DNA of 63,395 bases, the filler included. It is 5 parts of 5 records of this genome, joined end to end, with 100 filler letters (N's around TTAATTAATTAA, not from the genome) between each part and the next. Parts side by side here need not be neighbours in the genome. Positions count along the whole stretch, not along the records: positions 1 to 16,427 come from SRR31156797_3255; 4 more parts are not named here. One strand, written 5' to 3'. The notes under the pieces were generated by a model that did no database searches, was not told the origin of the DNA, and worked only from the letters and a program-made list of their open reading frames with translations. This document shows, in pieces, positions 2,768 to 54,451 of the stretch (within the stretch, counting starts at the first letter, position 1; every line of letters begins with the position of its first letter). A program made the translations under genes and the position numbers.

Positions 2768-3003
2768 AATAGATCCTTTGTAGGTTTTTATAATTATAGT
2801 AAGATTTAGTTACAAAATATCACTAATTTGTTTATTTATTATAAAATAACTACTTTAAAAAATAATAAAATAAAGAAGATTATAAAAGTAAGGAATAAAA
2901 TAAAATGAAAATATTATAAGTAAAATTTATATTAAATTAAGTAGTTTTTTAAGTATTTAGGGGTATTATTATTTTGATTAATTTCATGCATATCAAAAGA
3001 GTA

Positions 3004-3231
3004 TCATAAGAGATTTTTATGATACTCTTTTTTTTGTATTCTCAATATTGCGATATCCCAAACAATGTTTATTAATAGTCCTATAATTAGTGCGTATAAA
3101 ACATTAACACCAAAAATATCTCTATTTTTCAAAGTATTTAAAATGATAACACAAAGGGGCATACTCCAAATAAAAAAACTTTGGGCGATATGAATAACAA
3201 CAGGTTTCATTAAAGTAATTGCAGCAGCCAT
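3004..3231 (-). CDS. Small hydrophobic (two-TM) hypothetical protein downstream of c-di-GMP riboswitch
   Basis: 75-aa ORF, strong AAGGAG SD, two hydrophobic segments. Confidence 0.6.
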   Translation of the reverse strand: MAAAITLMKPVVIHIAQSFFIWSMPLCVIILNTLKNRDIFGVNVLYALIIGLLINIVWDIAILRIQKKEYHKNLL

Positions 3232-3280
3232 AATAATCTCCTTTTATAGGAGTCTCTTTGTTTAATTAGAATATTTTAAG

Positions 3281-3352
3281 TGGGTGCAACCCGACTATCT
3301 ACTTGAGACTCGTGGCTTTCCGTCCCTAAATCACTTTAGGTTTGGCAAAATA
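3281..3352 (-). ncRNA. c-di-GMP-I (GEMM) riboswitch
   Basis: Minus strand GCCAAACCTAAA-GTGA-TTTAGGGACGGAAAGCCACGAGTCTCAAGTAGATAGTCGGGTTGCA matches GEMM consensus (P2 with GYRA loop, GGGAC..AAAG junction, P3 ending GGGTTGC); equivalents of G20, A47 and C92 are present. Confidence 0.88.
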
Positions 3353-3417
3353 ATTATAATCTTATCATAAAAAATTATTTTTGTAAAGTAGTTTACTATT
3401 TTAAGGTGAGTATGGAA

Positions 3418-3693
3418 TTATTTTATATATTTTGTATAAAAATAAATGTGAGGACATTTCTCTTTTATAGTTGAGAGTGTAAATTTCATTTTTTCTAGAA
3501 CAAAATTACAACTTTGTATATTTTCTTCTGTGGGATTTGATATTATCAGTCCTGTACAAAGGGCATAGGTATCATTTAATACATCAATTTCATAAGTTAA
3601 AGAATAATATGTAATCAATTCGCCTTTCATCTTATAGTGTAGATAGTTTGATGAAATAATAGTCAGAGCAACAATTGAAAAAATAAAAATCAA
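3418..3693 (-). CDS. Hypothetical membrane-anchored/exported protein with Cys residues
   Basis: 91-aa ORF, N-terminal hydrophobic stretch; start uncertain. Confidence 0.5.
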   Translation of the reverse strand: MIFIFSIVALTIISSNYLHYKMKGELITYYSLTYEIDVLNDTYALCTGLIISNPTEENIQSCNFVLEKMKFTLSTIKEKCPHIYFYTKYIK

Positions 3694-3992
3694 TCCAATT
3701 TTAAATTTTTTGTTTATAACTTACCCTTTAAAATATAATACTTTTAATTTATCAGAAATGTCATAATAAAGTGCTGATTATGAAATAATAGAAAACAATA
3801 ATAATATAAATATTTAAAGACATTAAATAAATAAGAAAATAAAAAAAATTTTGATTTCATATTATTATTTACAATAGAAGTAGATAAATAATAATTGTAT
3901 AGTTTATTTAAACAGTCAATTATTAAATGCAGTTTAATAAAATATTAGCTTCTAATGAGTATAATAATTTTATTTTTTATTAAAGGGCATTT

Positions 3993-5297
3993 ATGGTAAA
4001 ACAATTTTTATTTTCTATTTCTACAGTAGCCATAATTTTTTCAGGGTGTACGCCTGCAAATAATAGAATAGACACTTCTACACTAACTGAATTACAAAAA
4101 CAACAATTATATAAAACATCTTTACACGAGGCAGTAAGGATTAATGATTTAGAAAAAGTTAAAGAGATATTAGCTGAAGGAAAAGATATTAATAGTAAAG
4201 ATAGGTTTGGTTATACCCCTTTACATCTTGCAGCAAGATTTAATCACTATGATATTGCAAACTATTTAATAGAACACGGTGCAGAAGTAAACTCAAAAGA
4301 TAAATATGGAGATTCTGCATTAATAGATACTACAAGAAATGGATATACAAACTTATCTAAACTTCTAATTTGTAATGGAGCAAAAAGGGATATTTTAGAT
4401 AAGTATGGAATGTCTGCATTACATTATGCTTCAAAAGTAAATGATGTTTTAATAGCAAAAATTCTAAGAGCAAAAGATATTGAACCTTTATGTAATAATA
4501 CTGCAAAAAAACAAGTTCAAAACAAAGAACAGTTTTATAATTTAATCACAATAGACGACTATAATGTTATTAATTCAGCTTCACCAAAAATTTGTGGAGA
4601 TATTCTTGATTTAGATGTGAGACAGGTACAAATAACTTTTGATGGAGGAAGAACAGTTACAAATGCAAAGTTAGATGACAAGAGATGGTGTGCAATCCCT
4701 TCTGAAAAAATCAAAAATGGAAATTATAATGTAATGGCCATGGCAATCAACTCTGCTAGACAAAAGGGTTTAGTAAAAGATGACTTAATCATAAAAGTTG
4801 AAAATATGTTGAGTAATACTTTAAAAAAAGAGTTTGAGAATGATTTAGAAAAATGGAATGCACAGTTTGACGAAGAGAGTTTAACAATAAGATTTAAAAA
4901 TCCTTCTGCTTTATTTGAAAGGGGAAGTATAAAAATCCAAGATAGATTTAAAAATATTCTAGATAGTTTTCTTCCAAGATATATAAATATTTTAAAAGAC
5001 TATAAGTCAAAAATATCAAGTGTACATATTGAAGGACACACTTCTTCAAGATATCGTTCAGCTTCAACTGATGAAGAAAAATTTGAGAAAAATAAAGTTC
5101 TTTCTCAAAAAAGAGCAGATTTAATTCTTAAATATCTAAACGAAAATAATGACCCTTTAATCTCAGAAAACTTGAACTTTATAAAAGAAAAATTCATTGC
5201 AATAGGAAAATCTTCTTCTGAACTAATTTACAAAGAAGATGGAAGTGAAGATTATGATTTATCTAGACGAGTTGAATTTAAGATAGAAAGTAAATAA
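3993..5297 (+). CDS. Lipoprotein: ankyrin repeats + Ig-like domain + OmpA/MotB-type peptidoglycan-binding domain
   Basis: Lipobox FSGC; GYTPLHLAA, GMSALHYAS ankyrin motifs; C-terminal IEGHTSS...LSQKRA...SRRVEF. Confidence 0.85.
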   Translation: MVKQFLFSISTVAIIFSGCTPANNRIDTSTLTELQKQQLYKTSLHEAVRINDLEKVKEILAEGKDINSKDRFGYTPLHLAARFNHYDIANYLIEHGAEVNSKDKYGDSALIDTTRNGYTNLSKLLICNGAKRDILDKYGMSALHYASKVNDVLIAKILRAKDIEPLCNNTAKKQVQNKEQFYNLITIDDYNVINSASPKICGDILDLDVRQVQITFDGGRTVTNAKLDDKRWCAIPSEKIKNGNYNVMAMAINSARQKGLVKDDLIIKVENMLSNTLKKEFENDLEKWNAQFDEESLTIRFKNPSALFERGSIKIQDRFKNILDSFLPRYINILKDYKSKISSVHIEGHTSSRYRSASTDEEKFEKNKVLSQKRADLILKYLNENNDPLISENLNFIKEKFIAIGKSSSELIYKEDGSEDYDLSRRVEFKIESK

Positions 5298-5303
5298 ACT
5301 ACT

Positions 5304-8300
5304 GTGGATAAAATTCAAAATATAATAAAAAGTATTAGAGAAGACCTTTGTGGTAATAAAGACTTTTCTCTATCTTTAAAAGATTTTATTGATTATAATC
5401 CAAATATTTCACAAACATATATAACTCTTTTTCAAGAGGGTGTTAAACCTATTAGGTGGGGTTCTAAAAAACAAACTTTAGAAGAGACTATCAAAAGAGA
5501 TATCTATAAACTAAAAAGTCATTCAAGATTTTCCTCTTTTGATGTAGAAGATAATAAAAAGTGTAGAATTCTTTTTGAGATGGTAACTGATGAAAAGCCA
5601 TGCAACATAAGAAACCTAACAAGTATTAAAATGCACTCTTCAAATAGATTTGAACCAGGAGTTACAGGATTAAAGTATACCTATGAAGGCATAACAAGAT
5701 TTTTTATGCCGACAGATGGGTATATCAAATCAATAATGAATGTAAAACAACTATTAAATTTCTTATCTAAACAGTGTGGCATAGCTAAAAAAACAAATCA
5801 AATTAGTGAACGAGCAAACTTGATGCGTAGAGAAGCTATTAAATACACTGCTTTAGAGTCAATTGCATATATAAGTTATGAAAATGAAGCATATAAGTTA
5901 GAAAGAGGATATCCTGTTCCTTTAGAGTTTTCAAAACAAATTGTTGAAGACAAACTTTTTAAAAGTCTTGATTGGCTCATAAATAATATGAATGATGATG
6001 GAAGTTTTTTATACTTTTATGACCCTTATGAAGATTCAGTAGTTGATTATCTTCATCCAGATATGAAAAACCCTTTATATAACAATATTCTAAGACATAG
6101 TGGTGGAACAATATCATTACTTAGAGGATACGAACTAAGTAAAAATAAAATCTATTTAGAAAGTGCAAAAAAATCTATTGATTTTTTTATATCAACTTTT
6201 AAAGAACACACTTATAAAAATGACTATGCTTGTTTCCCATTTTTTAACAAAAAATCAAAACTAGGTGGTGCAGGGATTGGTTTAGTTGCAATGATGCACT
6301 ACTATATTCACACACAAGATGAAAAGTATAGAAAATATTTAGATGGACTAGTAAGACATATCTTAAGTAGAGTTGATGAGCAAGGTGAGATGATAGGTTA
6401 CTACATACATCCAAAATTTAACAATGGAAATCCTATTATTAATCCAAGTGATGAAGTAAAAAAAGAGTTATTTTCTTTTTATTATCCAGGAGAAGCCTTA
6501 TTAGGACTTGCTTTATATTATTTAAATATAAAAAACTTAGATGAAAGCTTAAAAAAAGATATTCTATCAAAAAGTGAAAAAGCATTAGATTTTTTAGTTG
6601 ACGTTCGACCTACAAAGTATAGTTATATGTTTAAGTCTTTGCCTTCAGACGCTTGGCTTATGCAAGCAATAGAAGAATGGGTAAAAGTAGAAGGACTAAA
6701 GAAACAAAGTTATATAGATTTTGTTTTTGATGATACAAAGCAGATGTTAAGACATATGTATAGAGATGAAAATACACTAGATGTAAACAAAGACTACATT
6801 GGTGGTTTTTATTATAACTATGGAGATCATGTATATCATGACGCATCAAGATGTGAAGGTGTTATTAGTGCATACTATTTAGCAAAATATTTAAATGATG
6901 AAGAAAAAGCAAGTTGGATAATGAACAGTATGATGTTAAGTGCAAAAGGTTTAATGAAAACTTTTCACGATGAGAAATCGAACTATTGTCATATAAATCC
7001 TAAAAAAGCATTACATAGCTTTAGGTTTAAACTAACTAGACAATGGGTTAGAGTAGATTCTGTTCAACATGCAGCTTGCTTTTTTTCTAGACTTTTACCA
7101 ATATATTCTGAGTGCGAGAAAGCATTAGAAAATTACTCATTGATTTGTGGAAAATACCAAATATTAGAAGAGATAGATAAAGCAGGTTATAGCACTGTAT
7201 ATAAAGTTGAAGATATATATTCAAAAAAAGTTTATGCTTTAAAACATATAACCCATCCAAGATTTATGCAACTTGTAGAAAATGAACAAAAAGCCTTAGA
7301 AATAGTAAATGAACACTTACCTTTGAAGTTCTATGAAAAACTTGTTTCTGGAGGAAATGTATATTTTCTATTTGATTATGCAAAAGGAAAAAACCTAAAA
7401 AAACAAGTTGAAACAAAGGGTGCTTTTAGCCAAGATGAGGTAGAAAAATTTACTTTTGATATATTAAATACTTTAGAGTTTATAGCAGAGAAAAAACTTT
7501 TACATCTAGATTTAAAACCTGCAAATATTTTAAAGTATAAAGATTCTTATGCTTTGATGGATTGGGGAACTTCTCAAAGGATTTGGGTAAGTAATTCTGT
7601 TCACTTAAAAGGAAACCCTATTTATATAGCTCCTGAATACTATTTTGGAAAAAGAAATATTAAAAGTGAGTTATACTCTTTAGGATGTTCTATATATTTT
7701 CTTTTAGTTGGAAAACATATTTTTGGTTTACGAAAAAGAGATAATCTAGCAAAAAAAGTCTATCTACATCTTTATATAAAACCCGATTTATCGCAAATAA
7801 AATCAAAAAAAATGAGATATTTACTTTATAGACTTTTAGATAAAAACCCTTTTACTAGAGCAAACTTTGATGAAGTTAAACAGATACTAAAAGGTAAATA
7901 TGAAGATTTTGAGTACAAACAAGAAAAGATTTTAATTGACCTAAACGATGAGTATAAACTTTATGAAAGAATGGCAAACGATTCAGTTGCTTTTGCGCAA
8001 AATAAATATGCAAGATATTTTTTAGAAAAAGATAAAAATACTGCAATGTTATGGTTAGAAAAAGCTTCACAAGCTTCATATTCTATTGCACAAAATAAAT
8101 TAGCCTATATATATTTTACAGATAAAAAAGATTTAAATAAATCATTTTATTGGTTTAAAAAAGCAGCATTAGATGAACACGATATGGCATTGTATTATAT
8201 GGGTGTTTTTTATGAAAATGGGTATGTTGTTGAAAAAAATAAAGATATAGCAATCAAATACTATAAAAGCTCTGCAAATAAAGGTTATATACCTGCTTAT

Positions 8301-8342
8301 GAAAGATTGAATCAATTAGGAATTTATAATGAGTTCTTCTAA
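5304..8342 (+). CDS. Four-domain protein: AMMECR1-like + (alpha/alpha) toroid + Hanks-type Ser/Thr kinase + Sel1 repeats
   Basis: FEPGVTGL..FFMPTD (AMMECR1-like); DGSFLYFYDP..YNNILRHSG..KLGGAGIGL..YYPGEALLGL..RVDSVQH (toroid); ALKH, HLDLKPANIL, DWG, YIAPE (kinase); WFKKAA, YYMGVFYENGYVVEKN (Sel1). GTG start. Confidence 0.75.
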   Translation: MDKIQNIIKSIREDLCGNKDFSLSLKDFIDYNPNISQTYITLFQEGVKPIRWGSKKQTLEETIKRDIYKLKSHSRFSSFDVEDNKKCRILFEMVTDEKPCNIRNLTSIKMHSSNRFEPGVTGLKYTYEGITRFFMPTDGYIKSIMNVKQLLNFLSKQCGIAKKTNQISERANLMRREAIKYTALESIAYISYENEAYKLERGYPVPLEFSKQIVEDKLFKSLDWLINNMNDDGSFLYFYDPYEDSVVDYLHPDMKNPLYNNILRHSGGTISLLRGYELSKNKIYLESAKKSIDFFISTFKEHTYKNDYACFPFFNKKSKLGGAGIGLVAMMHYYIHTQDEKYRKYLDGLVRHILSRVDEQGEMIGYYIHPKFNNGNPIINPSDEVKKELFSFYYPGEALLGLALYYLNIKNLDESLKKDILSKSEKALDFLVDVRPTKYSYMFKSLPSDAWLMQAIEEWVKVEGLKKQSYIDFVFDDTKQMLRHMYRDENTLDVNKDYIGGFYYNYGDHVYHDASRCEGVISAYYLAKYLNDEEKASWIMNSMMLSAKGLMKTFHDEKSNYCHINPKKALHSFRFKLTRQWVRVDSVQHAACFFSRLLPIYSECEKALENYSLICGKYQILEEIDKAGYSTVYKVEDIYSKKVYALKHITHPRFMQLVENEQKALEIVNEHLPLKFYEKLVSGGNVYFLFDYAKGKNLKKQVETKGAFSQDEVEKFTFDILNTLEFIAEKKLLHLDLKPANILKYKDSYALMDWGTSQRIWVSNSVHLKGNPIYIAPEYYFGKRNIKSELYSLGCSIYFLLVGKHIFGLRKRDNLAKKVYLHLYIKPDLSQIKSKKMRYLLYRLLDKNPFTRANFDEVKQILKGKYEDFEYKQEKILIDLNDEYKLYERMANDSVAFAQNKYARYFLEKDKNTAMLWLEKASQASYSIAQNKLAYIYFTDKKDLNKSFYWFKKAALDEHDMALYYMGVFYENGYVVEKNKDIAIKYYKSSANKGYIPAYERLNQLGIYNEFF

Positions 8343-10707
8343 TTTAACTTTTACATTAAAAGAGATGGAGTCACTTGTAAATGGAAAATGGATAAATCTG
8401 TCCCCCAATCTTTTAATAAACGATTTTGTTCACATACTAAGTCAAGTGAAACAAGGTGATATTTTTGTTGTATCTTATGAATCTTGGTACAATAAAAAAA
8501 ACAGTAATGAAGACGAAATCCCACAAGCAATAAAAAATGGTGCAAGTGCATTATTCGTTGAAGAGCAAACAGATATCTCAAATATCAATATTCCTGTATT
8601 TGTAGTAAAAAACAGTTATGAAGCTTTGAAAAAGTTAGCAAAACACTCTTCTTTGAACTCAAAAGCAAAAAAACTTTTAATAACAGGAAGTTACGGTAAA
8701 ACAGGTTTTAAAAATCATCTTTATACTCTAAGTAATCAAAAAAACATATATGCAAGACTTCATAGTTCTAATAGATTTGCAACAACTTTATGCACTTTAG
8801 TTTCTATAAAAAAAGACACAAAACTTTTTTTAATAGAAGTTCCAATTAGAAGAAAAGATAGAATTCAAAAAAGCTCAAAGTATATTAAACCCAATATGTG
8901 TGTTATCACATCAATTGGACATGAACATATAGAGATACATGGTTCAATAGAAGAGATAATAAGACAAAAATGTTTAGTTGCAAGTAGCTTAAAAGAGGGT
9001 GAAAAAGTTATAATTCCAGGAGATTCTGAGTATACAAAACTTTTAAAAAAAGAGTTGAAAAAATATAAAGGAATAGTAGTTTTAACTTTTGGTGAAAGTG
9101 AAAATTGCAATGCTCAAATCCTTAACAAATATTTTATAGATAACAAATGGGTAATAACTGCAAGAATTGAGTTTGAGATTATTCAGTATGAAGTTCATTT
9201 TGTAGAAGAGCATGCACCTTCAAGTTCTGTTGCAGAACTATTGTGTTTAAAACACATGGGAGAAGATATTTATTCTTGTGCAAATAAATTTATTAAGTGT
9301 AAAAACTATAAAAGTAGTGGAAAACTATACAAAATAGAGTATAAAAACAAAGAGTTACTTCTTTATGACCAAAGCTCTAGAGGTGGAGTTGAAGGTTATA
9401 AATCTTTTTTTAAAACTATAAGAAGACTAGACTTTAAAAAAAACAGTAGAAAAATTGTTTTAAGTTCAGAGTTTGTTGATTTAAAAGATGGAGAGGATAA
9501 GTTTTTAGATATTCAAAGATTCCAAGAGTTGATTACAAAAGCAGAAATAACTCAATTTTATGGAGTTGAAAACTTTAATCATCATGAAGAAGTTATTAGT
9601 GATAAAACCATATATAAAGGTAATTACCCAAATCCAAATGAACTAGCAGAGAGTTTTTTTGATACTTTAAAAGATGGAGATATTATTTGTATAAAAGGTA
9701 TCTTTGAAAGTAATATTAACAAAGTAGTAAAAAAGCTTTTATCTAGTAGTAAACCTTTACCACGATATTTAATAAAAGAGTTTGATACTAACACTTTAAA
9801 AGGGTGTGAGGTTTTAAGTATAAAACATAAAGAGCTTTTTAAAACCTATTTAAAAGAAAAAAAAGTAGCTTTATGGTGTCAGTTTTTCCCTTTCTTATTC
9901 TCTTTTTCAAAATCAAAATCTAAAAAAATCTTAGTAAAAAAAGATGAAAGTTCACTAAGTGTTTTTTACCTAAGAAATATTAATAAAGCAGAAAAAATCT
10001 CTTTACAATTGTTTTTTATCCCTTTTCCTTTTAATTTTGAAGTATTAAAAAAGAGTTTAAATATAGTAAAACAATTTAATAAACAATCCCAAGTTACAGT
10101 AACTTGGTTAGATGATGAAGATATTTCAAATATAAAAAAACATAAAGAGTTTGCAGAAAATATTGAGTTTATACAAAAAGAGTATGAGTTTATTTTTGAT
10201 TCATCGTTATATTATAATCTTGCAGGTGGAAAATTAAGAAGTTTAAGGCAGCAAATAAATTGGGTAAATAGATTAGAAGATGTTAAAATTGTACCTTATA
10301 AAAAAGAATATTTAGATGATGCCTTAAAACTATATGACAAATGGAAAAAGTTTCAAGAAGATAAATATGATTTAATAACAGATGAAAATTATACTAAAAA
10401 TGCATTGTTTTTTTATGAAAGCTTTAAAGATGAATTAAAAGGTTTAGTTGTTTTAATAAAAGGTGAATTAAAAGCTTTTGGTTTTTATGGAAATATAAAT
10501 GAAACTACAATAAATATGTTTATTGCAAAGAGTGATTTAGAAATAAAAGGTTTACAACAGTTCTTAAAATACAATATTTTGTTGAATTCAAAAGATTTAA
10601 TTGTAAATGATGGAAGTGCAGAAAGTCAAGGTTTGTTTGATTCTAAAAAGAAATTAAATCCACTTTTTTTAAAAAAAGTTTATAAAGCAAGATATAATTT
10701 TATTTAA
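8329..10707 (+). CDS. MurF-like Mur ligase fused to DUF2156 (aminoacyl-tRNA-dependent transferase/LPG-synthase C-terminal-like) domain
   Basis: ITGSYGKT P-loop, VITSIGHEHIE, DIICIKG; C-terminal YEFIFD..LAGGKLRSLRQQIN..KGLQQFL..GLFDSKKKLNP. Confidence 0.75.
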   Translation: MSSSNLTFTLKEMESLVNGKWINLSPNLLINDFVHILSQVKQGDIFVVSYESWYNKKNSNEDEIPQAIKNGASALFVEEQTDISNINIPVFVVKNSYEALKKLAKHSSLNSKAKKLLITGSYGKTGFKNHLYTLSNQKNIYARLHSSNRFATTLCTLVSIKKDTKLFLIEVPIRRKDRIQKSSKYIKPNMCVITSIGHEHIEIHGSIEEIIRQKCLVASSLKEGEKVIIPGDSEYTKLLKKELKKYKGIVVLTFGESENCNAQILNKYFIDNKWVITARIEFEIIQYEVHFVEEHAPSSSVAELLCLKHMGEDIYSCANKFIKCKNYKSSGKLYKIEYKNKELLLYDQSSRGGVEGYKSFFKTIRRLDFKKNSRKIVLSSEFVDLKDGEDKFLDIQRFQELITKAEITQFYGVENFNHHEEVISDKTIYKGNYPNPNELAESFFDTLKDGDIICIKGIFESNINKVVKKLLSSSKPLPRYLIKEFDTNTLKGCEVLSIKHKELFKTYLKEKKVALWCQFFPFLFSFSKSKSKKILVKKDESSLSVFYLRNINKAEKISLQLFFIPFPFNFEVLKKSLNIVKQFNKQSQVTVTWLDDEDISNIKKHKEFAENIEFIQKEYEFIFDSSLYYNLAGGKLRSLRQQINWVNRLEDVKIVPYKKEYLDDALKLYDKWKKFQEDKYDLITDENYTKNALFFYESFKDELKGLVVLIKGELKAFGFYGNINETTINMFIAKSDLEIKGLQQFLKYNILLNSKDLIVNDGSAESQGLFDSKKKLNPLFLKKVYKARYNFI

Positions 10708-10751
10708 AGAGATAAATGATAAAGTTATTATTTTAAAATGAAAGGCATAAA

Positions 10752-11771
10752 ATGAGTAATCTATTTTCAAATATTTTAAAAAGTAAGTTTTTATTACTAA
10801 GTATCTTTTTTATTTTTAATCTTTATGGAAATATTGAAGTAAAACTAAACAAGTTAACTGCTACTATCATATTTACAGAGTCTTTGATGGATAAAGCAGG
10901 AAGACCTAAAGAGTTAAAAAAGATATATCTCGAAAGTTATAAAGATGACAATAGATTAAAAAATATTTTAAGAGAAACAAAACCCTTATACAAGAAATTA
11001 AGAGTATCAAAAATCTATAATCACCCAAAAACAGAAAGACTTTTTTCTGCAATTATGATAGAAAGTACATTTACAAATGATATAAATACTTTAGAATCAA
11101 AAATATTAAGTTATAAACTAGCTGTCTCTTCAAAAATGATAAAAAACTATTTCTCTATGCTTAAAGAGTTTGCACCTATTTATGATGAGTTAATTTGGAA
11201 ACCAAATTATCAAAAACTTTCAGAAGCAAAAGCACAAATAGAAGGTTTGATTGAGCAATTAAAAAAATCAAATGTACAAAGAAAAGTAGAAAACTTCTAT
11301 CATATAAAAGAGGGTGAAGCAAGACCTTTTTATGTAAATCTTTATCCTATTCCAAATGCAAAAGGTTTTAAAGCTTTAAGAATAGAAAATACTGCACCAG
11401 TTGGAATCATAATAAACAACAAAAAACTAAACTTAAAATGGTTTTTTAGTGCAGTAATTTTCCACGAGCAATGTCATGAGTATTTTGCACAATATAAAGA
11501 AAACATTAGACAAATGATTAAAAAAAATAAAAAATCAAGTGCAAAAGCATTTTTTAGAACTTTTGATGAAAGCTTACAAACTTCTATAGGTGCAGGATAT
11601 ACATATTATACATTGAGAGGAAAACTTTCTAAAGGTAAATGGTATAATAATAAAGTATATGATAACTTAGCAAAACGAATTCTACGAGAAGTAAGTATTT
11701 ATCTAAATAATAATAAACAAATTGATGAAGAATTTATTAAAAAAACAATTCAAGAATATAAGAAAATTTAA
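10752..11771 (+). CDS. Exported putative zinc metallopeptidase (HEXXH)
   Basis: Signal-like N-terminus; IFHEQCHEYF followed by FDESLQTSIG (possible third-ligand Glu). Confidence 0.55.
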   Translation: MSNLFSNILKSKFLLLSIFFIFNLYGNIEVKLNKLTATIIFTESLMDKAGRPKELKKIYLESYKDDNRLKNILRETKPLYKKLRVSKIYNHPKTERLFSAIMIESTFTNDINTLESKILSYKLAVSSKMIKNYFSMLKEFAPIYDELIWKPNYQKLSEAKAQIEGLIEQLKKSNVQRKVENFYHIKEGEARPFYVNLYPIPNAKGFKALRIENTAPVGIIINNKKLNLKWFFSAVIFHEQCHEYFAQYKENIRQMIKKNKKSSAKAFFRTFDESLQTSIGAGYTYYTLRGKLSKGKWYNNKVYDNLAKRILREVSIYLNNNKQIDEEFIKKTIQEYKKI

Positions 11772-11780
11772 AGGGCAAAA

Positions 11781-13676
11781 ATGAAGCAAACTTTAGAAAA
11801 TATATCAGTTGTAATACCTTGTTATCCACCTGATATAAAGAGTTTAAAAGAGAACTCTATTCCATCATTTAAAAACTCAACTTATAATCCTTTGGAGATT
11901 ATTGTAGCTTTAAGTGAAACAAATGATGAAGATGCCTTAAATTTAGAAAATGAGTTAAATAAACTATACGATTTTAAAATCAAAATATCAAATACCCCAG
12001 AACAAAAATATGCAGGTGAAAATAGAAACAGAGGGGCAGAAATCTCACAAGGTGAGATAATTGTATTTTTTGATTCTGATGATGAAATACATCCTCAAAA
12101 GTTAGAAATCACTGATTATATATTTAAAAAGTATAAACCTAAAATGTTTATGCACCATTGGCAAGGGTATTCAAGAAGATACCAAGAATATGATAAAGAG
12201 AATTTAGAGATAGTAACTTCTGATACTTTGAGTGAATTCACTTATGGAAAAAATGAAAACCCAAAGTGGATATTTGTAGATACTTATGCAAAAAGTGAAT
12301 GGGGACAAAACAAAAGTCATCCTCACCATGGACATGTTGCAATAGAAAGATCTGTTTTTGATGAGATTCAATACACTAACAAAAAAAGAGGTCAAGATGT
12401 TGAGTTTTGTCTAAAAGTTCTTAAAAAATACAATAACACAGTTTTTGCAAATGTAAAACTTGTAAACTATATCATGGACGATAGTAAAAAGATTTTAGAG
12501 CCAATTGTAAAATGGTGGGAAGATGACTATAAAGTTGAAGTAACTGAAATAAAAAATGACCCAAATCATAAGTATGCAATCTTAATGTTAGATGCCTTTA
12601 CTGATGAAAACTATAAACAATACAACGAATATAACTCTTTACTGTCAAAGGCAAGTGCTGATGAAGTATGGTCTTACTATCCAGTTATGGGCAAAAAATA
12701 TAAAGCAGATGATAAACTAGTTAGAAAAGCAAGTGTTATTGAGCCTTATTTACTTTATGAATACTTTAGAGACAACAATATCAAGCATAAAATTTGGTAC
12801 AAAAACTCACTTTTTATTTTAAATGATTCATTATATAGAATCACAAATTATAAGGTTTATAAAGAGGATTTAACAAACCTAAATATAGCTTGTTTAAGAG
12901 AGAGTTGGTCTCATCCATTTTTTGGATTTTTAGAGATAATTTTAGAAAAAGCAAACGGTAAGTTATGTAAACCAAATATGGGAACATTGAGAAATGCTGG
13001 ATGTATGAACAAACTTTATGGTTTAAGGGAGTTATATTCAAAAAGAGATGAATATATACAAGATATTGTAATTCCTTACAATATAGCTCCATATCAATAT
13101 GATGTTTTTTTATCTTTTTTAAGAGATTATTTTGGAAAAGAGTTAGTTTTCAAGATTGATTGTATCCAAGAAGGGCGTGGAGTTATTTTCAAAAACATAG
13201 AAAAGTCACTTCAACTAGATAAAATTGGACCAATTTTAGATAAACAAGGTCAAAAATCAAAAGAGATTTTTATAACACCAGCATTTACTATAGCTGAAGA
13301 GTTTAGGTGTTATTTCACAAAAGATAAACAAAATAATGTAACTGTTTATTCCATAAAACAAAGAAACAACAAATCATCAAAAGAGGAACTTTTCAAAACA
13401 GATAACATCCATATTTATAAAAACATTGATGTTTCATGGAGAGAGATTAAGTTTGGTAGTGATGATTTTATAAAAGCTTCAAATATAGCAAAAGATATGG
13501 TTTCTATGATGACTTATACATCAGGAAGTATTGAGTTTGGTATAACAAAAGAGGGCAAAATTGTATTCTTTGAAGTGAATCAAATGGCAGGACCTTTACC
13601 ATTTGTTGGTGAAGATTTAAAAAATATGAATAAATACTATAAAGCAATTTTTGATCAAATGTTTGAAGATGCATGA
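11781..13676 (+). CDS. GT2 glycosyltransferase fused to C-terminal RimK-like ATP-grasp domain
   Basis: ISVVIPCY, NRNRG, FFDSDD, GQDVEF (GT2); LVFK..QEGRGV..EEFRCY..IEFG..FFEVNQMAG (ATP-grasp). Confidence 0.75.
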   Translation: MKQTLENISVVIPCYPPDIKSLKENSIPSFKNSTYNPLEIIVALSETNDEDALNLENELNKLYDFKIKISNTPEQKYAGENRNRGAEISQGEIIVFFDSDDEIHPQKLEITDYIFKKYKPKMFMHHWQGYSRRYQEYDKENLEIVTSDTLSEFTYGKNENPKWIFVDTYAKSEWGQNKSHPHHGHVAIERSVFDEIQYTNKKRGQDVEFCLKVLKKYNNTVFANVKLVNYIMDDSKKILEPIVKWWEDDYKVEVTEIKNDPNHKYAILMLDAFTDENYKQYNEYNSLLSKASADEVWSYYPVMGKKYKADDKLVRKASVIEPYLLYEYFRDNNIKHKIWYKNSLFILNDSLYRITNYKVYKEDLTNLNIACLRESWSHPFFGFLEIILEKANGKLCKPNMGTLRNAGCMNKLYGLRELYSKRDEYIQDIVIPYNIAPYQYDVFLSFLRDYFGKELVFKIDCIQEGRGVIFKNIEKSLQLDKIGPILDKQGQKSKEIFITPAFTIAEEFRCYFTKDKQNNVTVYSIKQRNNKSSKEELFKTDNIHIYKNIDVSWREIKFGSDDFIKASNIAKDMVSMMTYTSGSIEFGITKEGKIVFFEVNQMAGPLPFVGEDLKNMNKYYKAIFDQMFEDA

Positions 13677-13688
13677 AGGGTGAGTGAG

Positions 13689-15548
13689 ATGGAAGAAACG
13701 ATTTTTATACAAATAGCAAGCTACAGGGATCCAGAGTGTAGAAATACAGTAAAAGATATTTATGAAAAAGCACAAAATCCTGAGAATATTTTTATTGGTA
13801 TTAATTGGCAATACCATGAAGATGATGACTTTGATGCAATATATGAAGACCAACCATATTCTAAAAATGTAAGAATAGCAAGATTTCATTGTACTGAGTC
13901 AAAAGGTGTTTGTTGGGCAAGAGCTGAAACTCAAAAACTATATAAAGACGAGAAATACACTTTACAACTTGATTCACATATGATATTTATCAATAATTGG
14001 GATATAGAACTACTTGCAATGTATAAACAGTTACTTGATAAAGGTATTGAAAAACCAGTTATTTCTCACTATCCACCAAACTATACTTTAGACGGAAAGT
14101 TTGATAACTGGCAAGGTAAAATGGCTCCTTATATTAGAGAGAGTGAAAAGATTATCTATTTTAAATTAACAGGTTACCAAATCAAACAAGATAATTCTCC
14201 TTTGATACCTTCTGCTTGTATTGCAGGGGGAATGTTTTTTGCCGATGCAAGTTGTATAAAAGAGATTCCTTATGACCCAAATATCTATTTTTATGGAGAA
14301 GAGATAACTTTAAGTACAAGATTTTGGACACATGGTTGGGATATTTATAACCCTTCAAAAATTGTATTATGGCATCTTTTTAAATCAGAAGAAAAAAATG
14401 GTACAAAAATAGAAACAAGAAAAATAGATACTCACTGGTACGACCAGCCAGATGAATATGAAAGATTAAATCAGCGTTCTATAAAGAGAACAAGACACTT
14501 TTTTGGTACAGAATTTAGTAACGACAAAGGTGTAACTATTGATTTAGATAAATATAAATTAGGAACAAAAAGAACACTTCATCAATATGAACTTTTTGCA
14601 GGTGTAGATTTTTATCAGTTAGAAAGAACACAGTTTGCATCTTCAGGGATTGTATTTGAAAACAAAGAAGAGAACAAAACTGCATATAAACAAGAAAATG
14701 AATCTTTTTATGAGATAAAAAAATATGATAAAGATAGCATAAAATCAGTTTATGATTTCATCTCTAAGTTAGATATAAAAAAAGTTGCAAGCCTAATTTC
14801 GTATGGGTATGATAACTTTGTAAATATCTACAACAAAGATATTGAATATATTGGGCTTGATTTGTTTGAAAATAATTGTGAACAAAATAGATATTTCTAT
14901 AGACATATAAAAAATGTTTATCATTCTCAAGTAAACTTTTTCAAAGAACCATTGCCTTGTGTTGATTTACTTTTAGCGGTAGATTTATTTGAAAAAATAG
15001 ATAAATATGAGATATCAAAAATTCTTTTAAGTGCTTCAAAATCTGGGATAAAATATGTTGCAACAAGTTTAAATAAAGATGATAAAAAGCTTGATTCTCT
15101 TCCAAATACTTGTTTTTCTATCCCTTTTACAGATAAAAAGGTTTTAAATTTCTGGAATATTGAAGATTTAAAAATTTATTTTTACTATTTAACAGGAAAA
15201 GAAGATTCTTTGAGAAAACAAATTATTCCTGTTTTGAAAAAGCAATTAAAAATTGTTGAAGAGAGTATGAAAGGATTAGAAAAAGATTACAAAAATATTA
15301 TTTTTTATATTTTTAGTTTAAGAAACTCTAAAGAAGCAAGAAAAATATACAATAAACCTGAAGTTCAAGAAAAATTATTATTTGATATGTCAAAGGGAAA
15401 AAATAGTATTAATTATATTTTCAACCTAAGATATTTCTCAAATCTTGATATTATAAATCGAGATTTTCCTTCAATAAAAAAAGAGGATTCAGATTTCGTT
15501 ACATCCCTAATTTGCGAATATTTACGAATTTATTATAAAAGTTTGTAG
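13689..15548 (+). CDS. GT60/'GlcNAc' family (Skp1 Gnt1-like) protein GlcNAc transferase with degenerate SAM-methyltransferase-like C-terminal domain
   Basis: IFIQIASYRDPEC, SKGVCWAR, LQLDSHMIF, PYDPNIYFYGEEI..RFWTHGWDIYNP; C-terminal YIGLDL..VDLLLAVDLF. Alternative GTG start at 13680. Confidence 0.8.
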   Translation: MEETIFIQIASYRDPECRNTVKDIYEKAQNPENIFIGINWQYHEDDDFDAIYEDQPYSKNVRIARFHCTESKGVCWARAETQKLYKDEKYTLQLDSHMIFINNWDIELLAMYKQLLDKGIEKPVISHYPPNYTLDGKFDNWQGKMAPYIRESEKIIYFKLTGYQIKQDNSPLIPSACIAGGMFFADASCIKEIPYDPNIYFYGEEITLSTRFWTHGWDIYNPSKIVLWHLFKSEEKNGTKIETRKIDTHWYDQPDEYERLNQRSIKRTRHFFGTEFSNDKGVTIDLDKYKLGTKRTLHQYELFAGVDFYQLERTQFASSGIVFENKEENKTAYKQENESFYEIKKYDKDSIKSVYDFISKLDIKKVASLISYGYDNFVNIYNKDIEYIGLDLFENNCEQNRYFYRHIKNVYHSQVNFFKEPLPCVDLLLAVDLFEKIDKYEISKILLSASKSGIKYVATSLNKDDKKLDSLPNTCFSIPFTDKKVLNFWNIEDLKIYFYYLTGKEDSLRKQIIPVLKKQLKIVEESMKGLEKDYKNIIFYIFSLRNSKEARKIYNKPEVQEKLLFDMSKGKNSINYIFNLRYFSNLDIINRDFPSIKKEDSDFVTSLICEYLRIYYKSL

Positions 15549-15550
15549 TG

Positions 15551-15569
15551 GAAACTTTATAGAAACTTT
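15551..15569 (+). promoter_or_regulatory. Tandem GAAACTTT direct repeat with 11-bp period upstream of adhesin gene (OmpR/PhoB-type box candidate)
   Basis: GAAACTTT-ATA-GAAACTTT at 15551 and 15562. Confidence 0.4.
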
Positions 15570-15614
15570 TTTTATATATAGTTAAGCTATAGGAATATAC
15601 TTAAAGGCTTAACT

Positions 15615-16427
15615 ATGACACTTATAATCAGACACATTAACGGCGAGATAGAAGAATTAAATGTTACAGGAAATATGGAGATTAAACCTCTTGAAGGGGA
15701 ACAACTATATTTTTTAGGTGCAGATAAATATTCGTTTTCATTAGCAGATGGCGAAGAAACAATCAAACTTAATTTAGTAGAGGGTACACAAAGATTTGAA
15801 ATAACTCTTGACCAGATGGCAGAGTTAATTAAAAACAATAAACCTGATGATATTTTTGCCTTAAATACTGCACTTGGTGTGTCTGCCACAGTTGACGGTG
15901 AAAAAGAGATTATGGATGCTGTTAATAATCCTGACTTCGAAAGTGGAGAGATTATTAATGCATTAAAAGAGAGTCTAGCTTTAAGTACTTTGGCTGATAT
16001 GGATGGGTCAATCATAGATAATTTTGGGTCTTTAGCAGAATATTTAGAGGCTGCAGCAGCTGGTGAAGAGTCAAGTGATGGGTCTTTGTTTATTGAAGAA
16101 GATAGAAATCAAGAGGTAACACCTGCAGAGGAGACTGAGAGAAGCGAAAGAATTGAAACAGAAGAAGATTCAACTACAACAGAAGATACCACGACTACAG
16201 AAGATACCGAAACTACAGAGGATACTGAAACTCCTGAAGATACAGAAACTATAGAAGATACTACTACTGATGAAGATACTACAACTTCTGAAGATACAAG
16301 TTCAGATGAAGATACATCAACAACAGAAGATACAAGCTCTGACGAAGACACAGAAACAATAGAAGATACAGAAACAACTGAAGATACAAGTTCAGATGAA
16401 GATACAGGTACGACTGAAGATACAAGC
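15615..16427 (+). CDS. N-terminal part of a LapA-like/T1SS adhesin (retention region + acidic Thr-rich repeats), truncated by contig end
   Basis: No signal peptide; LEAAAAG resembles the di-alanine LapG cleavage motif; followed by an acidic linker and EDTxxx repeats. Confidence 0.65.
16164..16427 (+). repeat. 18-bp/6-aa tandem repeat (EDTxxx), 14 full units plus a partial one, running into contig end
   Basis: EDSTTT EDTTTT EDTETT EDTETP EDTETI EDTTTD EDTTTS EDTSSD EDTSTT EDTSSD EDTETI EDTETT EDTSSD EDTGTT EDTS. Confidence 0.95.
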
Positions 16428-16527
16428 NNNNNNNNNNNNNNNNNNNNNNNNNNNNNNNNNNNNNNNNNNNNTTAATTAATTAANNNNNNNNNNNNNNNNN
16501 NNNNNNNNNNNNNNNNNNNNNNNNNNN
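16428..16527. other. Artificial contig linker
   Basis: N44-TTAATTAATTAA-N44 (stops in all six frames); composition changes across it. Confidence 0.98.
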
Positions 16528-25367: not shown

Positions 25368-25467
25368 NNNNNNNNNNNNNNNNNNNNNNNNNNNNNNNNN
25401 NNNNNNNNNNNTTAATTAATTAANNNNNNNNNNNNNNNNNNNNNNNNNNNNNNNNNNNNNNNNNNNN
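25368..25467. other. Artificial contig linker
   Basis: N44-TTAATTAATTAA-N44. Confidence 0.98.
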
Positions 25468-38043: not shown

Positions 38044-38143
38044 NNNNNNNNNNNNNNNNNNNNNNNNNNNNNNNNNNNNNNNNNNNNTTAATTAATTAAN
38101 NNNNNNNNNNNNNNNNNNNNNNNNNNNNNNNNNNNNNNNNNNN
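38044..38143. other. Artificial contig linker
   Basis: N44-TTAATTAATTAA-N44. Confidence 0.98.
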
Positions 38144-54351: not shown

Positions 54352-54451
54352 NNNNNNNNNNNNNNNNNNNNNNNNNNNNNNNNNNNNNNNNNNNNTTAAT
54401 TAATTAANNNNNNNNNNNNNNNNNNNNNNNNNNNNNNNNNNNNNNNNNNNN
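54352..54451. other. Artificial contig linker
   Basis: N44-TTAATTAATTAA-N44. Confidence 0.98.

Follow-up and report, generated by a model that had tools for sequence, protein, structure and literature searches.

The window analysed here, a stretch of 63,395 bases of joined DNA, carries in its first contig (positions 1-16427, GC about 27%) a gene for a glycosyltransferase of family GT60, followed directly by the start of a gene for a giant adhesin with an acidic, threonine-rich repeat. We regard it as probable, judging from the sequences of the locus and its relatives, that this predicted cytoplasmic enzyme attaches N-acetylhexosamine (HexNAc) to the Thr stalk of the adhesin before export. A preliminary description of the locus had proposed the repeat as the acceptor, and the support that can now be added is comparative throughout: the pairing of the two genes is kept in the closest relative, a Thr-rich gene lies next to GT60 in 23 of the 36 loci that have one, isolates carry repeat-protein partners beside GT60, and the modelled catalytic domain resembles the GT27 polypeptide transferases.

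The features on which this proposal rests are:

13689..15548, + strand: GT60 gene, with catalytic domain, pseudo-methyltransferase domain and helical bundle
13689..14612, + strand: GT60 (GT-A fold) catalytic domain with the D98-S-H100 'DxH' motif; Pfam stretch to residue 311
14730..15179, + strand: class-I methyltransferase-like Rossmann domain with degenerate motif I, a probable pseudo-enzyme (AlphaFold 2 model, Foldseek)
15198..15545, + strand: helical bundle at the C-terminus (197-311 of the tail), a feature of the ~620-aa subfamily only
15615..16427, + strand: start of the adhesin gene, truncated at the contig end; it encodes the N-terminal domain, the AAAG motif and the acidic Thr-rich repeat
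15615..16109, + strand: adhesin N-terminal domain, common to giant (up to 7945 aa) adhesin-like proteins
16163..16427, + strand: 18-nt tandem repeat (TRF period 18) encoding ED-T-x-T-x hexapeptides, candidate O-glycosylation acceptor

The GT60 gene and its catalytic domain

The open reading frame (ORF) encodes 619 aa from the ATG at 13689 or 622 aa from a GTG at 13680. With a AAGGGTGAG box a few bases upstream, the ATG is the likelier start, which agrees with the gene coordinates 13689..15548 of the preliminary description. The PF11397 search proposed there returned a match to this family ('GlcNAc') at E=2.3e-63, with 215 bits against a cut-off of 21 in the Pfam scan, and bears out the assignment to GT60; the same model matches 20 of 20 subfamily members, and NCBIfam holds no model for the domain. 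The four motifs first read from the letters, IASYRD, GVCWAR, QLDSHM and FYGEE, are all present in the translation and fall on invariant columns. In a 20-sequence alignment of full-length relatives these are A13, S14, Y15, R16 and D17, then G76, C78, W79, A80 and R81, then D98 and H100 (QLDSHM), and finally Y203, G206 and E208; a 32-sequence alignment likewise shows no variation at D98, at H100 and at the rest of the motif residues.

An AlphaFold model of residues 4-330, made with the 32-sequence alignment, has a pLDDT of 94.8. All 32 rows listed by Foldseek for this model (ranks 1-49) are GT27 polypeptide N-acetylgalactosamine (GalNAc) transferases, with E values of 3.5e-13 to 1e-9 at a sequence identity of 14-18%. 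As modelled, the domain is a GT-A fold whose nearest solved folds, among the matches listed, are those of GT27; no GT60 structure turned up when the PDB was searched by sequence. The DxH form is common to GT27 and GT60, and GT60 is confined to prokaryotes and protists, according to a GT-A survey (PMC7185993). The window protein has no hydrophobic N-terminus and no membrane-like segment (maximum KD19 1.55, internal), and on these grounds the enzyme should be cytoplasmic.

The methyltransferase-like tail

Residues 320-622 match no Pfam family, either in the window protein or in any of 20 relatives, and methyltransferase Pfam families are matched by 0 of 20 family members at E<=0.1. In the AlphaFold model of residues 311-622 (pLDDT 88.8) a Rossmann-type sheet leads into a helical bundle, the latter with conserved R584 and W columns in the 20-sequence alignment, and essentially every Foldseek row listed for this model is a class-I S-adenosylmethionine (SAM) methyltransferase at E about 1e-5. 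In the model, then, the tail domain is a Rossmann-like, seven-strand methyltransferase fold. The glycine-rich motif I is absent from the window protein (VASLISYGYD) and from its nearest relatives; roughly half of the family members retain no more of it than an LD-x-G remnant, and the acidic residue of beta2 is not conserved. Methyltransferase folds with motif I missing are what had been described as a degenerate Rossmann or SAM-methyltransferase-like tail, and the domain is a probable decayed methyltransferase, or pseudo-methyltransferase. Shorter relatives of ~520 aa align to the window protein as far as residue 460-500, and PF13649 or PF08242 was matched in 5 of 6 of their GT60 ORFs scanned; on this sequence evidence they are true GT60-methyltransferase fusions.

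The downstream adhesin gene and its repeat

A Thr-rich protein is indeed encoded directly downstream of GT60, as first described: its gene (15615..16427) starts 66 nt beyond the GT60 gene, and its ORF enters the spacer of N that follows the contig. The fragment has no signal peptide-like segment. An exhaustive search with its first 165 residues gave 42 homologues at E<=0.001, each aligned at its own N-terminus, and homologue lengths reach 2482, 3460, 3742, 4285 and 7945 aa; a word-index search with the N-terminus gave no match among proteins of 476-2000 aa. Two of the homologues, P0121 (2482 aa, 66% identity) and P0124 (3460 aa), are repeat-containing giants in which regions resembling Calx-beta and vWA were seen (domain names assigned by eye). 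At residues 147-150 the window protein reads AAAG, and the motif [TAP]AA[GV] occurs in 21 of the 42 homologues; we take it to be the LapG-type dialanine site of LapA-like type I secretion adhesins. A retention-module profile was matched neither in Pfam nor in NCBIfam. Right after the AAAG motif come 14 complete ED[ST]xxx hexapeptides, and adhesin residues 176-271 consist of 38% T, 24% E and 20% D.

GT60 genes and Thr-rich neighbours across loci

The pairing was examined in 159 GT60 loci, 80 from genomes and 79 from metagenomes, which include five duplicate pairs. An earlier filter (S+T at least 30%, D+E at least 25%) selected only 3 of the 159 and missed the Thr/Pro partners, hence a Thr-only filter, under which a Thr-rich ORF has at least 150 aa and at least 30% Thr in a 60-aa window. 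Such an ORF occurs in 36 of 159 loci. In 23 of these 36 no more than 500 bp separate the GT60 ORF from the nearest such ORF, which is on the same strand in 21 of the 23, while bases within 500 bp of GT60 make up 8.8% of the flanks (binomial P about 4e-16); removal of one duplicate pair leaves 22 of 35. Adjacent Thr-rich ORFs belong to 20 of 49 loci with methyltransferase-tailed GT60s and to 3 of 108 with other architectures.

Several isolates show the arrangement clearly. In Noviherbaspirillum sp. ST9 a fused ATP-binding cassette (ABC) transporter of 1308 aa and HlyD are followed by a 966-aa (PTETPA)n protein and a GT60-methyltransferase. The order in Pseudoduganella is ABC, a 1398-aa (PTETPT)n protein and GT60; in Novispirillum GT60 is preceded by a protein of 1417 aa that has RTX repeats (PF00353, E=6e-50) and a Thr content of 28%; and in Azospirillum and Magnetospirillum (EPPVTT)n and (APTTTS)n proteins lie directly upstream of it. 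The Thr/Pro-repeat proteins of isolates measure 600 to 1400 aa and share common N- and C-terminal domains, with type I secretion system (T1SS) ABC/HlyD genes or RTX repeats nearby. Of the 159 loci, 13 carry both an ABC and an HlyD homologue, and 15 carry the C-terminal domain conserved among the Thr/Pro proteins. Isolate loci with a GT60-methyltransferase after a Thr/Pro-repeat protein are:

L023, 1580-11536
L014, 390-11551
L013, 4760-11566
L048, 1-3452
L061, 1-3627
L030, 1-3582

In a FastTree tree of 168 GT60 domains (a quick method with local supports only, from which 100 of 120 listed proteins and 5 duplicate loci were left out), the ~620-aa family forms one clade of 23 rows with support 98, and the loci with an adjacent Thr-rich ORF are spread over at least three separate regions of it.

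Other GT60 contexts were seen as well. In a Methylococcales metagenome-assembled genome (MAG; L080, 2963-7929), GT60 is fused to a 2-oxoglutarate (2OG)-oxygenase, prolyl-hydroxylase-like domain (a call made by eye and from Pfam lists) and its gene comes after that of a signal-peptide protein whose repeats are (DPDTDPSS)n and (PDPTPDPDPV)n; the two may form a bacterial hydroxyproline (Hyp) or Thr glycosylation pair resembling Skp1 chemistry. Plasmids gave 8 distant GT60 records, and the upstream genes of 2 of the 8 were examined. In Burkholderia ambifaria (L175, 5942-8353) the GT60 gene stands directly after a fimbrial protein, inside a type VI secretion cluster, and in Klebsiella aerogenes (L176, 5693-8044) it stands directly after a hypothetical protein with a short PTPTPSPTPTPTPTPEPTP (TP) linker. 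As support, these plasmid contexts are suggestive at most.

Closest relatives of the ~620-aa subfamily

The closest GT60 relative, 50% identical over its full length, comes from a Pseudomonadota MAG (L001). This locus keeps the order of three window genes, for an HExxH protein (37% identity), a GT2-ATP-grasp protein (56%) and GT60 (50%). On the same strand, 85 bases upstream of this trio, ends a 5'-open ORF for a protein of EDTGTD/EETGTT/EDTSTD hexapeptide repeats, and within the L001 genome the repeat pattern is confined to that contig, with 15 matches against 0 for the reversed control. The repeat gene is downstream of the trio in the window and upstream of it in L001. Because it thus stands on opposite sides, beside proteins that are only 37-56% identical, we conclude that the adjacency has survived rearrangement.

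Other comparisons with this genome, which is incomplete, were negative: no match to the adhesin N-terminal domain was found, the six-hairpin part of an upstream window protein was unmatched, with matches to its kinase domain only, and the one Mur match was a 24%-identical ligase, probably housekeeping. The C-terminus of the L001 repeat protein has no similarity to two giant adhesins. L001 also carries, at 5640-7439 on the minus strand, a 599-aa ORF convergent on GT60 that has no Pfam match and whose C-terminal part looks ATP-grasp-like by eye.

Two Gallionellaceae-type loci, L002 and L081, carry a six-hairpin protein, a kinase-Sel1 protein, an HExxH protein and GT60. No shared HExxH partner is proposed for these GT60s: the window/L001 type and the Gallionellaceae type show no detectable homology (hhalign probability 0.2%). 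The first ORF of L081 has no similarity to the MurF-DUF2156 protein of the window. A Campylobacterota-like locus (L082, 5518-10747) holds a GT60 that is 62% identical to the window's over residues 6-200; it is truncated and fused in frame to a LuxR-type helix-turn-helix tail, follows T1SS ABC, HlyD and HDOD-like genes, and looks like a decayed copy of the same system.

The upstream gene string and the rest of the stretch

The GT60 gene closes a string of tightly packed, same-strand genes that runs from 5304 to 15548, with one overlap of 14 nt and gaps of 9 to 45 nt. Its other members are:

11781..13676, + strand: GT2 (PF00535, E=9e-15) fused to a probable ATP-grasp ligase domain, candidate second-step enzyme
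10752..11771, + strand: protein of 339 aa, N-terminus hydrophobic, HExxH motif in the form HEQCH; kept together with GT60 in L001
8329..10707, + strand: MurF-like ligase (PF08245, E=1.7e-19) fused to a DUF2156/LPG_synthase_C domain (PF09924, E=7e-10)
5304..8342, + strand: six-hairpin (alpha/alpha toroid)-like domain, Ser/Thr kinase (Pkinase, E=3e-31) and Sel1 repeats (E=1.6e-12)

The C-terminal half of the GT2 fusion matches R2K_2 ATP-grasp at E=0.0046 and 17.3 bits, below the cut-off of 26.2, and its first match by language model is 'putative ATP-grasp' (0.90, 184 shared features). Among 401 sampled genomes of L001's class this half is present in one, that of L001 itself. No Pfam or NCBIfam match was found for the 339-aa HExxH protein. 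The MurF-like protein matches TIGR01143 (murF) at E=3.6e-35, below that model's cut-off; it is the gene overlapped by the six-hairpin-kinase-Sel1 gene, and with its strand and tight spacing as the evidence its link to GT60 is uncertain.

Homologues of the six-hairpin protein are named 'Six-hairpin glycosidase-like' and number 1534 matches, of which the 120 listed have 64-80% identity. The toroid domain is 64-80% identical across many Campylobacterota and occurs alone (~600 aa), with kinase and Sel1 (~1012 aa) and with a Mur ligase, with or without DUF2156 (~1650 aa). Since it is far more widespread than the ~620-aa GT60 subfamily, and in several fusion forms, the six-hairpin/kinase/Mur module looks like a separate, at most accessory unit; possibly the six-hairpin/Mur module is an envelope glycopeptide pathway. 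In scans of 3000-16427, promoter-like sites numbered 70, where shuffled sequences averaged 81, and terminator-like sites numbered 6, where the shuffled average was 2.8 (sd 1.8). The terminator-like sites are all inside ORFs or upstream of the gene string, and none falls in an intergenic gap; the scans do not help with operon boundaries.

Before this string the contig carries further genes. At 2-2767, on the minus strand, three genes appear by eye to be of NuoE/NuoF/NuoG type, from an NAD(P)-linked hydrogenase or formate dehydrogenase. At 3993-5297 lies a gene for a lipoprotein with an IFSGC lipobox, ankyrin repeats, a Big_13 Ig-like domain and an OmpA-like C-terminus, the last of which matches the NCBIfam Zorya ZorB2 model at E=1.7e-39, well below the cut-off of the model.

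The closest named homologues of the six-hairpin gene, among the matches listed, come from Halarcobacter, Poseidonibacter and Sulfurimonas at 64-80% identity, and for this reason the first contig is probably, as far as sequence similarity can place it, from an Arcobacteraceae-like member of the Campylobacterota. The whole stretch consists of five contigs joined by four spacers, each made of 44 N, TTAATTAATTAA and 44 N. Because GC climbs along it from about 26% to 58%, the joined pieces are probably from different organisms, and with five unrelated contigs no features are linked here across the spacers, which lie at:

16428-16527
25368-25467
38044-38143
54352-54451

Proposed function and its alternatives

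The sequence of events that we infer would begin with a soluble, cytoplasmic, retaining GT-A enzyme that binds its metal through DxH. Its donor is most likely UDP-HexNAc, by analogy UDP-N-acetylglucosamine (UDP-GlcNAc), and it would transfer alpha-HexNAc onto threonines of the acidic ED-T-x-T-x stalk in the cytoplasm, before export. The GT2 domain of the neighbouring protein would probably add a second sugar, and its probable ATP-grasp half could add an amino acid or amine. The giant, signal-peptide-less adhesin would then be exported, presumably by type I secretion, and the stalk, next in line after the retention domain, would lie immediately outside the pore of the outer membrane. The pseudo-methyltransferase tail may serve substrate handling and not methylation, a speculative role that would be comparable to that of the lectin domain in GT27.

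The acceptor is likely Thr and not Hyp. No prolyl hydroxylase was detected: no 2OG-oxygenase domain was found in the GT60 protein or in the Pfam-scanned genes of 3993-16427, the genes at 2-2767 having been read by eye only. Such a domain is fused to GT60 in other bacterial relatives (PF13640/PF13661; L080). The label 'Skp1 Gnt1-like', under which the enzyme was first presented, is too narrow for a locus in which no prolyl hydroxylase was found.

Several observations weigh against the glycosylated stalk. Within the ~620-aa subfamily the acidic repeat is found at only two loci, the window and L001; both repeat genes are cut by contig ends, and in L001 the repeat ORF lies 3,019 bp from GT60 with two genes between. 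Neither of the two full-length ~620-aa loci has an adjacent Thr-rich ORF, the 500-bp statistic coming from other GT60 clades. Because two genes separate the L001 repeat ORF from GT60, that statistic speaks for GT60 generally and L001 for the subfamily. The contigs of L002 (4.8 kb) and L081 (9.1 kb) hold no repeat gene, 123 of 159 loci have no Thr-rich ORF at the threshold used, and an EDT-type repeat stalk is found in 0 of the 42 homologues of the adhesin N-terminal domain. For this adhesin, whose gene is cut at 16427, the contig holds no C-terminal secretion signal, no RTX repeats and no T1SS gene. The MurF-like, DUF2156 and GT2-ATP-grasp enzymes of the operon would also be compatible with a product that is not a protein, and the proposal assumes that a glycosylated chain can pass through the type I secretion channel.

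GT60 might act on a non-protein acceptor and, together with the MurF-DUF2156, six-hairpin and GT2-ATP-grasp proteins, build a glycopeptide or teichuronopeptide-like envelope polymer, the adhesin being a mere neighbour. The tight same-strand string from 5304 to 15548, with its Mur ligase, aminoacyl-transferase-like domain, GT2 and probable ATP-grasp, would be in keeping with such a pathway; one source (PMC4431377) discusses linked ATP-grasp and other ligases among the enzymes that make peptidoglycan, teichuronopeptides and similar products, and six-hairpin and kinase genes recur beside the ~620-aa GT60 in L002 and L081. We nevertheless consider this unlikely. The six-hairpin/kinase/Mur module, with its 1534 matches, is far commoner than the GT60 subfamily, and L001 has the GT60 trio and the repeat, whereas no specific Mur-DUF2156 or six-hairpin orthologue was found in its incomplete genome. 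The nearest solved folds, among the rows listed, are moreover all polypeptide transferases, and the adjacency of GT60 and Thr-rich genes is well above chance.

The enzyme could also modify a different protein encoded elsewhere, the Thr stalk remaining unmodified or being modified by other enzymes. Gnt1, a characterised GT60 member, acts on the single cytoplasmic protein Skp1, the plasmid GT60s follow a fimbrial protein or a TP-linker hypothetical protein (2 of 8 records), and the 123 loci without a Thr-rich ORF in view would be accommodated. Yet the prolyl hydroxylase that is fused in many relatives is missing here, the pairing of repeat and GT60 has been kept across rearrangement, and Thr-rich ORFs are strongly enriched beside GT60 genes, so that we judge this possibility quite improbable. 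To the idea that the stalk is mainly phosphorylated by the six-hairpin-kinase-Sel1 protein, with GT60 regulatory or inactive on the stalk, we give very little credence: although a Ser/Thr kinase (Pkinase, E=3e-31) lies in the same string and recurs beside the ~620-aa GT60, the kinase fusion is often seen where GT60 is lacking, no six-hairpin orthologue was found in L001, which has both the repeat and GT60, and all GT60 catalytic residues are conserved.

Glycosylation of the Thr stalk would belong to a wider scheme, which we put forward tentatively, as possible and short of probable. Bacteria may have a mucin-type O-glycosylation of their own, in which cytoplasmic GT60s, often fused to sugar methyltransferases, would decorate Thr-rich stalks of giant type I adhesins, and from which protist GT60 and animal GT27 would descend. 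The window would then represent a more elaborate form of it, having a pseudo-methyltransferase, an acidic EDT stalk and GT2-ATP-grasp as a partner. To our knowledge, GT60 biochemistry comes from protists only. The locus and the wider pattern name a candidate substrate class for bacterial GT60, the Thr-rich stalks of secreted giant adhesins, and because the pattern also occurs in culturable carriers, among them Noviherbaspirillum sp. ST9, Pseudoduganella sp. LjRoot289, Novispirillum sp. DQ9, Azospirillum sp. SYSU D00513 and Magnetospirillum moscoviense BB-1, the question is directly testable. If true, the scheme would provide a new adhesin-glycosylation system for Gram-negatives in which glycosylated chains pass type I secretion, and would bear on the origin of eukaryotic mucin-type O-glycosylation.

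Comparison with known systems

Our literature searches agree with the earlier statement that bacterial GT60s have no assigned substrate: no paper was found that assigns one or that links GT60 to type I secretion or Thr-rich proteins, subscription journals and CAZy lying outside the search. A term search of a 2025 review of bacterial O-glycosylation did not return GT60.

Characterised GT60s make GlcNAc-alpha-1-O-Thr on Trypanosoma cruzi mucins and do so without the lectin domain of GT27, as two sources state (PMC9472816, PMC8724618). The protist enzymes (T. cruzi TcOGNT1/2 and the Dictyostelium Golgi pp-alphaGlcNAcT) are like the window enzyme in having PF11397, the DxH motif and no ricin-type lectin domain, and in the Thr-rich, mucin-like repeat that is their acceptor and the presumed acceptor here. 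They are Golgi membrane proteins that work in the secretory lumen, whereas the window enzyme has no membrane segment and would act in the cytoplasm; it adds a decayed methyltransferase domain and a helical bundle, and its presumed acceptor is a strongly acidic EDTxTx repeat in contrast to the Thr/Pro/Lys type of the protist acceptors. Skp1 Gnt1 of Dictyostelium and Toxoplasma is a cytoplasmic, soluble GT60, as the window enzyme is predicted to be. Gnt1, however, needs a prolyl 4-hydroxylase, not found at the window locus, and modifies one Hyp on Skp1.

GT27 and GT60 are sister families in a published GT-A tree (PMC7185993). The GT27 polypeptide GalNAc-transferases share with the window enzyme the DxH motif and the plan of a catalytic domain followed by a C-terminal accessory domain, which is a ricin-type lectin in GT27 and methyltransferase-like in the window GT60; the donor of GT27 is GalNAc and that of the window enzyme probably GlcNAc.

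A LapA-type likeness is seen on the side of the adhesin. Giant type I adhesins of this type have an N-terminal retention module and a LapG dialanine site; the N-terminal domain of the window adhesin likewise heads giant repeat proteins, with [TAP]AA[GV] at about residue 147, but matches no retention-module profile and is followed, directly after the motif, by a mucin-like stalk. We know of no relation between GT60 and the glycosylation of the cyanobacterial proteins SwmA and oscillin. These are type I secretion-type RTX surface proteins reported to be glycosylated, and the passages that describe them name no glycosyltransferase (PMC3034196).

The literature searches returned no GT60 or type I secretion example of a dedicated adhesin glycosyltransferase. 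Dedicated cytoplasmic adhesin glycosyltransferases do exist in HMW1C with HMW1, TibC/BAHT with TibA/AIDA-I, and GtfA/B with the serine-rich repeat proteins. The logic in these systems is the one that we propose, a soluble transferase encoded beside the adhesin, which is decorated before export. They differ in their enzymes (GT41, heptosyltransferases and GT4), in their export routes (two-partner, autotransporter and accessory Sec) and in their linkages, and what would be new at the window locus is a GT60 mucin-type initiator in a bacterial, cytoplasmic and adhesin-dedicated setting.

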